Source: Candidatus Eiseniibacteriota bacterium
Lineage (GTDB): Bacteria; Eisenbacteria; RBG-16-71-46; CAIMUX01; VGJL01
Direction: 5' to 3'
Length of the DNA stretch: 64,000 bases
Assembly: GCA_041946735.1 (NCBI GenBank)
Contig: JBHGAY010000023.1
Location: 1-64,000 of the forward strand
The notes under the pieces were generated by a model. It did no database searches and was not told the origin of the DNA. It saw only the letters and a list, made by a program, of their open reading frames with translations. Each line of letters begins with the position of its first letter. Positions within the stretch are counted from its first letter, which is position 1. Shown here piece by piece: positions 2,492 through 51,877 of the stretch. The translations under genes were made by a program, and so were the position numbers.

Positions 2492-3634
2492 ATGAACGTG
2501 AACCGCTTTCGCCTCGGGTCGCTGATCGCGCTCCTCGCAGTGATTCCGTGCCTCGCGCAAGCAGGGAAGAACGCAGGGGGAGCGCTGATCGTCCACACGA
2601 ACGACGCCGTCATGTATCGATACCCCAACCCCCTCTGCAATCCGGAATACGAACCGACCAGCTGCGAAGGGGCGGTCACCCGGAGCGAGGCGTCGGGCAA
2701 CTTCCCAACCGTCACATGGTTTCTCGCCGCCTTCCCGGACGGCTCGGAGCCGGCCGTCACCGAGCTACGCTTCGGAGTGCGGCATGGCTTCCCGCCGGGC
2801 CAGGGCTACTGTGTCGGCTGGATGCCGTGCGGTCCCAATGTGGCCGTCGACGTCACGGAAGGGTTCCCGGATACGCCCGGCGGAGCTCGGATCGCCTATT
2901 TGGACGTGGTCCGCGACCCCTTCTTCCCGGTCTGTTTCTTCGGCTTCTGGGCGCTTTCCGGGAGCTATCTCGGCACGGGCCCCGATCCTCGTACCGGGGA
3001 AGCACACTTCGTCGACGATCTCGTCCCAATCACCCAGGACGGAATCGAGCGGTTCGGCGAGGTCCGCTGGTACGACGACGGCTACAACGACTGCCCGTCG
3101 GCCGAGGTGGCCGCCTGCTGCCTCCCGAACGGGTTCTGCGTGATGCAACCCACGGATGTCTGCATCGAGGAGGGGGGCGATGTCCTGCCCGACGACGCTT
3201 GTACTCCCGGCCTTTGCGCGCCTGACGCATTCGGAGCCTGCTGTCTCGACGACCTGTGCCTGATCTCGGCGCCGCAAGCGTGCGAGGATGCTGGCGGCGT
3301 CTTCCAGGGGATCGCATCGACGTGCGACCCGAACCCTTGCTTCCTGATGTTCGGGGCCTGCTGCGTGGAAGGCGTCTGCAGCTACAAGACGAGGCTGCAG
3401 TGCGGCAGGGACGGCGGGGAATGGCTGGGCTACATCCCGTGCGACCCGGTCGACCCGTGTCCGTTGGCGGGCGCCTGCTGCATGCCCGACGGAAGCTGCA
3501 CGTTGTCGCTCGACCAGGACTGCCTGTACAACGGCGGAACGTGGACCGATTCCGGCGTTCCGTGCGTTCCGAATCCGTGCCCGACCGCCGTTCAGCCGAC
3601 GACATGGGGAAGGATCCGCGCGACCTATCGATGA
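2492..3634 (+). CDS. Secreted Cys-rich repeat protein with C-terminal TWGRIRATYR motif; paralog 2
   Basis: AGGAG upstream; signal peptide ending AQA; same architecture as 1305..2447 with near-identical 3' DNA. Confidence 0.88.
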   Translation: MNVNRFRLGSLIALLAVIPCLAQAGKNAGGALIVHTNDAVMYRYPNPLCNPEYEPTSCEGAVTRSEASGNFPTVTWFLAAFPDGSEPAVTELRFGVRHGFPPGQGYCVGWMPCGPNVAVDVTEGFPDTPGGARIAYLDVVRDPFFPVCFFGFWALSGSYLGTGPDPRTGEAHFVDDLVPITQDGIERFGEVRWYDDGYNDCPSAEVAACCLPNGFCVMQPTDVCIEEGGDVLPDDACTPGLCAPDAFGACCLDDLCLISAPQACEDAGGVFQGIASTCDPNPCFLMFGACCVEGVCSYKTRLQCGRDGGEWLGYIPCDPVDPCPLAGACCMPDGSCTLSLDQDCLYNGGTWTDSGVPCVPNPCPTAVQPTTWGRIRATYR

Positions 3635-30400: not shown

Positions 30401-30686
30401 GCGCTCTCCTCCTGCCGAATGGCGTCCGGAGCGCCGAACGTAGATGCCGTCGAACCGAGGGTCAAGGATCGCAGCGGGCCCGGCGGGTCCGCGCCCCCGG
30501 CCAGTCCGCCGCCCTCGCCGGCTCGCGCCCGGTCGCAGCGCCGTGGCGACAGACACCGCATGGCCGCCTCAGTGCCATCACCTAGCATCAGTCACCTCTC
30601 GCCCATACGACCGTGGAGCGCGTACAATTGCCCCCGGCTGACTGGAAGAGCCTTGCGTGAACAGTGGCAGTGGAAAGGAGGAGGTC

Positions 30687-31637
30687 ATGCGAGCACTGGC
30701 CGCATCGTTGCTCGCCTCTTTGATCCTGTCCGTGCCGGCGATTGCCGCCACCTATGTCGTCGATCCCTATGGCACCGGCGACTACCCGACGATCCAGGCC
30801 GCCGTGAACGGTTCCGCCAGCGGCGATGTGATCGAGCTGACCGATGGGACCTTCACCGGCCCCGGCAACCGGGACATCCGGTTCAATGGAAAGGACCTCA
30901 CCGTCCGGTCGCAGAGCGGCGATCCCACACGCACGGTCATCGACTGCGAGCTGGCGGAGCAGGCGTTCCTCATCTGGGAGGGCGAAGAGGTGCACTTCCA
31001 GGGAATGACGATGACCCGGGGGCGCGACTCCTCCTGGGGAGGAGCCGTCTGTGTGGAGATGGCGGCTCACGGAGTTTTTCGGGACTGCATCTTCAGCGAC
31101 AACAGCGCGCCGGGCAACGCCGGAGCCGTGATGATCATGAACTGCGGGTACGCGGAGTTCGAGGGGTGCACCTTCATCGACAACTCCAGCTATGCGGGCG
31201 GCGCCGTATGCACCTGACCCGGTGACATTGCACTGGTCCAGTGCACCTTCTACGACAACCAGGCCGAGGAAGGCAGCGCGATCTCCTTCCGCGGCGGTTG
31301 CGGAGTGGAGCTACGCGTCGAGAACACGATCATCGCCTTCAACAACGGCGGCTCGGCCATCGAGGGCGGCGCCGATGCCTTCTTCAGCTGCGTGGACATC
31401 TATGGCAATCCGGGCGGCGACTGGACGCCGGCGATCGTCGACCAGCTCGGCCTGCGCGGAAACATCAGCGACGACCCGCTCTTTTGCGACGCTGCGGGCG
31501 GAGACCTTCGCCTGAATGAGGGCTCCCCCTGCGCGCCGGGCGGCGAGTGCGACAGGATGGGCGCCTGGCCGGTCGGGTGCGAGGCGACCGCCATCCGCGA
31601 GGCGAGCTGGGGCGAGGTCAAAGCGCTGTTCCGGTAG
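30687..31637 (+). CDS. Secreted right-handed beta-helix (pectin-lyase-like) protein with in-frame UGA at 31215-31217, candidate selenoprotein; C-terminal SWGEVKALFR motif
   Basis: AGGAGG-ATG and signal peptide; GDYPTIQAAV...DGTFTGPGNRD; repeated GGAV and CTF-x-x-N coils. The ORF-track pieces 30657..31217 and 31305..31637 share one frame and the repeat continues across the TGA (GGAVCT*PGDIALVQCTFYDN). The alternative reading is a nonsense pseudogene. Confidence 0.7.
31215..31247 (+). promoter_or_regulatory. Candidate bacterial SECIS element
   Basis: UGA, then 11 nt, then stem UGCACUG(31229-35) / loop GUC / CAGUGCA(31239-45); resembles the E. coli fdhF SECIS in spacing and apical GGUC. Confidence 0.55.
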
Positions 31638-50905: not shown

Positions 50906-51877
50906 ATGGGTCGCGTGATTGGTCCGCATCTCCTGCGGCTCCTCGTCCTCTCGCTGTTCCTGACCGCGGTCGCTTGGCCGGCCCTGGCCGCCGCTCCCGT
51001 ACTCGGCAGGCCGGGCTCCGGCATCGATCCTTACCATCCCGCCCTCCCGCGCGAAGTCGTCTGGCAGCAAGACCCGAACGTGGCCGGATACGTCTTCACC
51101 TCCGAGGAGTTTCCCGACTTCCATTCGGAGACGGCCAACGACTTCGTCCTTCCGCAAGCCGCCACCGTCCGATCGGTGACCTGGTGGGGCGGCTTCTTCA
51201 ACGGCCCGCCGCACGTGGAACTGGCGGGCTTCTGGTTCCGCTGGTTCCGGGACGGCGGCGGCTGCGCCCCCGCGGAGATGATTCGCGAAGAGCTGATCCT
51301 CGGTGATTGCGAGGAAAGCCAAATTCCCGGCTCGGAGATCTACGCCTACCGCGCCGACGTCTCGCCCGTCGACCTCGAGGGCGGGGTTCGCTACTGGCTC
51401 GTCATCCAGGCGCGCAACTGGTACTTCCCTCCCCAGTGGGGACGGGTCGCCGCCCTGGCGGTCGAGGAATGCGAAAGCGTTTTCCGATGCCCCGAGGCCG
51501 GATATCCCGACTGGACCGTCGTCTCCTCGGTCATCGGTGAACCGTACGACGCTTCCTTCGCCCTCTCCACCGATTCGGACGCGGAGGCCTGCTGCTGGGG
51601 CGAGGGGTTCTGCTCGATGGTCCCGCCCGAAGACTGCACGCTCCAATATGGCGGCACTCCTCAGGGACCCGGCAGCAGCTGCGTCCCGAACGCCTGCCCT
51701 CCGCCGCCGATCGGAGCGTGCTGCCTCGGCGAGGATTGCCAGGTGATGACCGAGGGCGGCTGCTGGATGGCAGAAGGCGACTTCCAGGGGCCGGACACCG
51801 ACTGCGATCCGAATCCCTGCATCGTGATCGCGGTCGAGGAGAAGAGCTGGGGCAACGTGAAAGCGATGTTCCGCTAG
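50906..51877 (+). CDS. Secreted protein with a beta-sandwich-like domain (ANDF...YWLVI), two Cys-rich GACC/PNPC repeats and C-terminal SWGNVKAMFR motif
   Basis: Signal peptide ending ALA; Cys modules homologous to those in 1305..3634; extended -10-like TGGTAGAAT at about 50828. Confidence 0.82.
   Translation: MGRVIGPHLLRLLVLSLFLTAVAWPALAAAPVLGRPGSGIDPYHPALPREVVWQQDPNVAGYVFTSEEFPDFHSETANDFVLPQAATVRSVTWWGGFFNGPPHVELAGFWFRWFRDGGGCAPAEMIREELILGDCEESQIPGSEIYAYRADVSPVDLEGGVRYWLVIQARNWYFPPQWGRVAALAVEECESVFRCPEAGYPDWTVVSSVIGEPYDASFALSTDSDAEACCWGEGFCSMVPPEDCTLQYGGTPQGPGSSCVPNACPPPPIGACCLGEDCQVMTEGGCWMAEGDFQGPDTDCDPNPCIVIAVEEKSWGNVKAMFR

Follow-up and report, generated by a model that had tools for sequence, protein, structure and literature searches.

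We describe a gene in a stretch of DNA from Candidatus Eiseniibacteriota (assembly GCA_041946735.1, contig JBHGAY010000023.1, positions 1 to 64,000 of the forward strand) which, as judged from sequence comparisons, very probably belongs to a new selenoprotein family using the standard SelB/SECIS route (SECIS, selenocysteine insertion sequence). The whole stretch of 64,000 nucleotides (nt), called the window below, is contig C16 of the genome, which carries the label G000. The gene lies on the plus strand at 30687-31637 and forms one frame of 316 codons followed by TAG (31635-31637), with a single UGA to be read through. Its ATG at 30687 is preceded, at a distance of 2-5 nt, by a Shine-Dalgarno-like AGGAGGAGG (AGGAGG) at 30676-30684 on the same strand, as found by direct reading of the sequence. 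Scans for sigma-70 promoters and for terminators at the gene found none of either. Direct reading also finds that the sole interruption of the 316-codon frame is the TGA at 31215-31217 (plus strand), codon 177, in the context ...GGAVCT-U-PGDIALVQCTFYDN..., and this bears out an earlier note on the same DNA, in which two open reading frame (ORF) pieces had been joined into one frame broken by the TGA only. That note had further proposed that the UGA, in a C-T-U context, encodes selenocysteine (Sec). The proposal is supported by the analysis given here; the tests that the note had named as able to refute it, as run, did not do so.

Downstream of the TGA, 11 nt (31218-31228) are followed by a perfect 7-bp stem, at the very distance the earlier note had given. 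The two arms (TGCACTG, 31229-31235, and CAGTGCA, 31239-31245) and the loop between them (GTC, 31236-31238) make up a SECIS-like hairpin, UGCACUG-GUC-CAGUGCA, at 31229-31245 on the plus strand. Its conserved core, GCACUGGUC[C/G]AGUGC at 31230-31244, codes for A-L-V-Q-C and is unique in the genome, and if the top pair of the hairpin opens, the loop reads GGUCC. Folded alone, the hairpin has a free energy of -8.1 kcal/mol, and 2 of 200 shuffled sequences fold as well. The bacterial SECIS (bSECIS) model has a loop of 3-9 nt on a stem of 4-16 bp, a G within the first two positions of the loop (usually G[G/U]), a distance of 16-37 nt from UGA to loop and a minimum free energy (MFE) at or below -7.5 kcal/mol (PMC13188914). 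The comparison with this model, which had been suggested earlier, places the window hairpin inside it in all four respects, with its 7-bp stem, GUC loop, 18 nt spacing and -8.1 kcal/mol. An Rfam search of 31100-31400 gave 0 matches at E up to 10.

Selenocysteine machinery is present in the genome. The tRNA-Sec scores 72 bits and is called SeC with anticodon tca by ARAGORN, and profile searches find selB at 349 bits, selA at 479 bits and selD at 388 bits. These genes lie on contigs C10, C20, C15 and C2, outside the window contig, in agreement with the earlier observation that the window holds no selA, selB, selC or selD. The selD gene is itself of the Sec type, with its own in-frame TGA (...ACAG-U-ASK; G000:C2:108941-109867, minus strand). 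Two peroxiredoxin-like (Prx-like) AhpC/TSA genes also have an in-frame TGA, one at G000:C71:109419-109787 (minus strand; ...NTGG-U-TAEG) and one at G000:C7:65469-65810 (minus strand; ...WHPT-U-GACR). No FdhA selenoprotein was found in this genome (best TIGR01553 match, 45.7 bits) and the Sec trait is therefore kept without FdhA; selD and the two Prx-like genes served instead as SECIS comparators from the same genome. In selD, Prx-like C71 and Prx-like C7 the stems are of 7-8 bp, the 3-nt loops are GGA, GUU and GUA, and the loops stand 20, 17 and 17 nt after the UGA, respectively. The geometry at the beta-helix gene is like theirs, namely a UGA, then at 9-12 nt a stem of 7-8 bp with a 3-nt loop G[G/U]N, the loop coming 17-20 nt after the UGA. 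The proposed route of decoding is the canonical one.

The UGA and the hairpin are found together well beyond the window. When the read-through protein is searched against 41 related genomes, each of the eight top-scoring matches other than the gene itself has one in-frame TGA. When the subfamily is aligned, these TGAs fall in the same column and are followed by A-L-V-[Q/E]-C. A scan for TGA-N12-GCACTSGTSSAGTGCAC in one genome per species found 19 stretches, 18 of them in the beta-helix family with the frame open on both sides and one a chance match; the matches include metagenome-assembled genomes labelled Candidatus Krumholzibacteriota and uncultured Fibrobacteraceae. A TGA followed after 12 or 15 nt by the hairpin occurs in 27 distinct genes of 12 genomes, and both elements are kept in all close orthologs, which answers the question of conservation at this column that had been posed earlier. 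The beta-helix paralogs of the protein number in the hundreds across the related genomes; in a quick tree of 72 family rows, which is poorly resolved, the Sec rows cluster (6 changes vs 22 in shuffles).

The subfamily is expanded in one genus, where TGA-N12-hairpin matches number seven, five and three per genome (G007, G022 and G020, respectively). One G022 contig holds three such copies, and some Sec-subfamily copies directly adjoin a TGA-less beta-helix paralog (L042, L043).

How closely the hairpin follows the UGA can be seen from a search of the 41 genomes with the hairpin core alone (pattern RYRCTSGTBSAGTGYAC). The core has 25 matches, with a TGA at -12 in 18 and an in-frame TGA at -15 in three; the remaining four are a decayed copy, a TGA-less paralog with a weak variant and two unrelated chance matches. 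The reversed pattern, used as a control, gave 0 matches for TGA plus hairpin and 2 for the core alone. Folding tells the same story: the best local hairpin at column 177 has a median of -8.2 kcal/mol in rows with TGA (n=18), 89% of them at or below -7.5, vs a median of -4.2 kcal/mol in rows with a sense codon (n=67), 12% of them at or below that value. We regard these comparisons as establishing that the predicted hairpin is coupled to the UGA. They also answer in large part a caveat raised earlier, that the stem might do no more than mirror the QCT repeat of the protein, since sense-codon rows mostly lack the hairpin; the part of the caveat that stands is that some of the pairing may be constrained by the protein. 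Synonymous sites within the hairpin are conserved as well. The Ala codon of the core is GCA in 24 of 25 cases, vs a background of 12% in the same genes, the Leu codon is CTG in 24 of 27 (background 40%) and the Val codon is GTC in 24 of 27 (background 42%), while the Thr codon right after the stem varies freely. This conservation supports a constraint that probably acts on the RNA.

The decayed copy found in this search, L109 (G023:C1:7426-7442 and upstream), has a TGA at -21, a TAA at -9 and a broken upstream frame, and it looks like a former member of the subfamily.

The TGA itself can be followed in other public data. Contigs from three public runs of three studies are identical over it, at depths of 13, 26 and 4; the first two runs may be the source of the assembly, and the third contributes a 255-nt contig over 30991-31245. 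At the level of contigs, the check for an assembly error that the earlier note called for is in favor of the TGA. No RNA run was listed among the public runs that contain the stretch. When 5.8 billion proteins are searched, the nearest entries are seven predicted proteins, each exactly 176 residues long and ending in ...AGGAVCT; one of them is 99% identical and the other six are 65-80% identical. Full-length matches to the read-through protein do not exceed 47% identity there. Gene callers stop at codon 177, and therefore the full protein with its tail is absent from the annotation of these uncultured genomes. Two orthologs recovered from metagenome DNA, L134 (78% identical) and L135 (72%), are likewise 316 codons long, with the TGA again at codon 177, and share both the hairpin and the tail. 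Pairwise comparisons with these two orthologs give a dN/dS of 0.15-0.18 for codons 178-316 vs 0.11-0.20 for codons 22-176, at a dS of 0.75-1.25. The relaxed selection after the TGA that a dead gene would have displayed, another point for checking in the earlier note, is not seen. By this measure purifying selection is evidently as strong 3' of the UGA as 5' of it, and the value after the TGA argues that this part is translated.

We consider it highly likely, from the comparative record, that UGA 31215-31217 is a selenocysteine codon, recoded by the standard SelB/SECIS system to give a full-length exported protein, and we infer that the residue inserted at codon 177 is Sec and not another. In the proposed mechanism, the hairpin UGCACUG-GUC-CAGUGCA would recruit SelB carrying Sec-tRNA(Sec), with the apical G-U-C loop standing 18 nt after the UGA. 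The ribosome would then read through UGA 177, inserting Sec. The product would have 316 residues, comprising a signal peptide, a beta-helix with a coil Sec in C-x-U context, a Cys-rich module and a ...SWGxVKxLFR tail.

The product is predicted to be exported and appears to be a secreted right-handed parallel beta-helix protein. It matches Pfam Beta_helix (PF13229) at 38.2 bits (cut-off 25.9) and the Chlam_PMP repeat (PF02415) at 29.2 bits (cut-off 20.6). AlphaFold2, run on an alignment of 40 rows, gives a model with a mean predicted local distance difference test score (pLDDT) of 93.5 and a predicted template modelling (TM) score (pTM) of 0.88, the fold running unbroken across residue 177. Foldseek matches the model to pectin methylesterase, PL6 alginate lyase, rhamnogalacturonan lyase and Rhombotarget A (TM to query 0.58), at 10-15% identity. 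From the N-terminus, the order of parts is a signal peptide, assigned by eye, an N-terminal cap, the beta-helix coils, a Cys-rich C-terminal module and a tail. The putative signal peptide covers residues 1-20 (...SVPAIA / ATYVV; 30687-30746, plus strand); it rests on the hydrophobic N-terminus, its cleavage site is placed by eye, it is modelled as a lower-confidence helix, and homologs align from ATYVV/ETYVV onwards. The Cys-rich module, at about residues 235-297 (31389-31577, plus strand), reads C-[CV]-D-I-x-G-N...DPLFCD...SPC...C...GAWPVGC and lies wholly 3' of the UGA. Past residue 177, conservation reaches 90% or more in many columns of the 40 family rows.

The protein ends in the tail ...ATAIREASWGEVKALFR-COOH (31578-31634, plus strand), a tag common to many exported proteins of the genome. 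Its SWGEVKALFR is reached only by read-through and, as the earlier note had it, the same kind of tail closes three other window ORFs, which end at 2447, 3634 and 51877 (tails at 2417-2447, 3604-3634 and 51847-51877). In the whole genome the motif P[TV]A[TV]xxx[ST]WGx[IVL][KR]xx[FY]R-COOH stands at the end of 74 ORFs, 65 of them of at least 150 aa; its occurrences in six frames number 99, of which these 74 are at ORF ends. Two of the window ORFs, at 1305-2447 and 2492-3634, are tandem paralogous secreted proteins of 380 residues, Cys-rich and with this same C-terminal tail, and are without a Pfam match at E up to 0.1. They stop at TAG and TGA, respectively, confirming the earlier remark that UGA is otherwise a stop here. 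Among 68 ORFs of the genome with a tail-defined end, the stop is TGA in 19, TAG in 45 and TAA in 4. A reassigned TGA (a Gly or Trp code) was rejected because TGA still stops those 19 of 68 ORFs.

Several observations weigh against a Sec reading of this codon, and the first of them concern the hairpin. In 40 nt counted from the UGA, the fold is ordinary for GC-rich DNA (z -0.78; 41 of 200 shuffles), and because this context is unremarkable the hairpin is not beyond chance from one sequence alone. It is the comparative data that lift the hairpin above chance, as the single sequence does not. Even in the comparative data, the covariation that had been sought as a test is not significant: the score is 0.055 vs 0.045 in shuffles, and 130 of 500 shuffles score at least as high. 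Pairing at the five core pairs is complete (135 of 135 cells), the changes in the stem being one double change (G-C to A-U, through a synonymous TGC-to-TGT) and two wobbles, and the RNAalifold consensus is a 5-bp stem only. The stem is conserved in sequence, synonymous sites included, and does not covary. Moreover, the 3' arm codes for the Cys-Thr of the repeat, and a homolog with Cys in place of the UGA, P0026, keeps the peptide ALVQC, so that part of the conservation could act on the protein.

Other points against Sec concern the residue and the genomic context. Most selenoproteins have many Cys homologs, and the earlier note had asked whether homologs have Cys at the UGA column. Among the 109 TGA-less homologs of full length, column 177 is Cys in one and is otherwise hypervariable (G 14, S 13, A 11, N 10, etc.). 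The CxU motif of the earlier note is indeed present in the window's protein, but it is not the conserved motif, since the residue at -2 of the UGA is C in merely 12 of the 27 subfamily genes, R in 10 and another residue in five. Finally, although selA is found in 12 of 12 genomes holding beta-helix genes with TGA and hairpin, it is over the cut-off in 38 of the 41 genomes of the class, the three misses being genomes 56-86% complete. Within the class, then, the presence of the Sec machinery alongside these genes is uninformative.

These observations bear on three other explanations. In the first, the UGA would be mainly a terminator working as a selenium-gated switch, so that the cell would secrete mostly an untagged fragment of 176 residues, and the tagged full-length form only when Sec-tRNA is plentiful. 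The identity of residue 177 would then matter little, as might be expected of a position that seems tolerant, being hypervariable in TGA-less homologs. The placing of the tail of 74 genome ORFs on the read-through product only is consistent with a gate, as is the presence of up to seven such paralogs per genome, as in a regulated set. However, the residue itself seems to matter, given that position -2 is C or R in 22 of the 27 genes and that a Cys form exists, and a fragment of 176 residues, half a beta-helix, would probably not fold. We think a gate of this kind improbable as the main role of the codon; it overlaps with Sec insertion as proposed above, since Sec would still be inserted.

In the second explanation, a near-cognate tRNA (Trp, Cys or Arg) would decode the UGA, the hairpin merely slowing termination and thereby stimulating read-through without Sec. 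The weak covariation in the stem would be in keeping with such a role. Nevertheless, the hairpin falls within the bSECIS model and has the geometry of selD and the two Prx-like genes, and selA accompanies the TGA genes in all 12 genomes. Also, a sense codon would be simpler for Trp, Cys or Arg, yet the UGA is kept at a dS near 1. Decoding without Sec is improbable, slightly more so than a gate. The third explanation, a pseudogene or assembly error, in which a nonsense mutation or a miscalled base would sit in an ordinary beta-helix gene, agrees with the lack of TGA in all 22 in-genome paralog alignments over the column, and is refuted by the identical contigs of three studies (depths 13, 26 and 4), the TGA at the same codon in the orthologs of 65-80% identity and in the 27 genes of 12 genomes, and the downstream dN/dS of 0.15-0.18.

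With Sec insertion by the SelB/SECIS route as the preferred reading, the residue context of codon 177 can be considered further. The Cys form P0026 (44% identity) reads ...GAICI-C-AVGSALVQCTFYDN, a CxC counterpart of the C-x-U. Among 206 genomes of the class it has seven matches at E <= 1e-70, all of them with TGA, which places this Cys form inside the Sec subfamily; the DNA that encodes P0026 itself was not found in these 206 genomes. With the coil register worked out by hand, C175 and U177 would lie on the same face of one beta-strand. If so, they could form a selenenylsulfide redox couple or a soft metal/chalcogen site. We put forward, tentatively, that Sec was gained anew at a hypervariable coil position and not swapped for a catalytic Cys, and that the family recruited Sec at two or more sites, with up to seven Sec paralogs per genome, in an undescribed extracellular use of selenium. 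This broader proposal is possible but stands well below the assignment of the codon itself. If it were true, the residue might join the protein to a surface partner through a Se-S or Se-Se link, let the C/R-x-U site capture soft metals or chalcogens, or make production of the tagged surface form depend on the availability of selenium.

Most selenoproteins of bacteria are redox enzymes of the cytoplasm that have a thioredoxin-like fold, and to our knowledge no right-handed beta-helix repeat protein is known as a selenoprotein. The present gene is unlike known SelB/SECIS genes in that its host is an exported beta-helix and not a thioredoxin-fold or other redox enzyme. It also differs in that the Sec column is without a conserved Cys in homologs and the SECIS is almost invariant in the subfamily. 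Sec in an exported beta-helix would extend the known settings of selenium use and would be a reactive handle for study of this beta-helix family. The near-invariant hairpin GCACUGGUC[C/G]AGUGC, 12 nt after the UGA, offers a simple search key for the subfamily.

The earlier statement that the beta-helix class is not among known bacterial selenoproteins agrees with the sources consulted. No beta-helix or pectin-lyase-like family appears in the accessible part of a 2026 table of 119 selenoprotein families and subfamilies (PMC13188914, Table 1). NCBIfam has no matching family model, the protein having two sub-threshold matches of 12.3 and 11.3 bits. Neither the review (PMC13188914) nor the deep-Sep paper mentions 'helix' or 'pectin', and 'helix' is not mentioned in the accessible portion of the BSepDB text. 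Literature on Eisenbacteria selenoproteins or on selenocysteine in beta-helix proteins yielded no report, as judged by titles and the beginnings of abstracts. In Table 1, selenoproteins with a CxU motif include rhodanese-like form 3, UshA-like, thioredoxin-like Sec.1 and ferredoxin-thioredoxin reductase (PMC13188914). The beta-helix gene is like these CxU selenoproteins in having C-x-U in the window's protein and in 12 of the 27 genes, with P0026 as the CxC counterpart, and is unlike them in its unrelated fold and in the R-x-U of 10 of the 27 genes.

Among right-handed beta-helix repeat proteins, the nearest likeness is to those described by PF13229 and by the Pmp-type repeat GGA[ILV]/FxxN of PF02415, the Pfam scores being above cut-off and the fold matching; one source applies the label 'predicted outer membrane repeat protein'. 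Unlike the chlamydial Pmp autotransporters, the protein is without a C-terminal barrel; its 316 residues close with the Cys-rich module followed by a short tail. The likeness to pectin methylesterase and polysaccharide lyases is at the level of fold only, with the 10-15% identity given above.

In-frame TGAs also occur elsewhere in beta-helix genes. A second gene of the window's genome has one in its first coil (G000:C5:130285-130287, minus strand), in the context ...AAEGT-U-PYCSGGGVRC with a UxxC motif. By eye, a GGU-loop hairpin is found about 20 nt downstream of this site; the RNAfold MFE structure of 60 nt picks other pairings. This class of first-coil TGA is present as well in G008 (L048 and L076, with U-x-C) and in G032 (L049, L075 and L089), each with a G-rich-loop hairpin. 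It seems that this beta-helix family carries Sec at more than one site.

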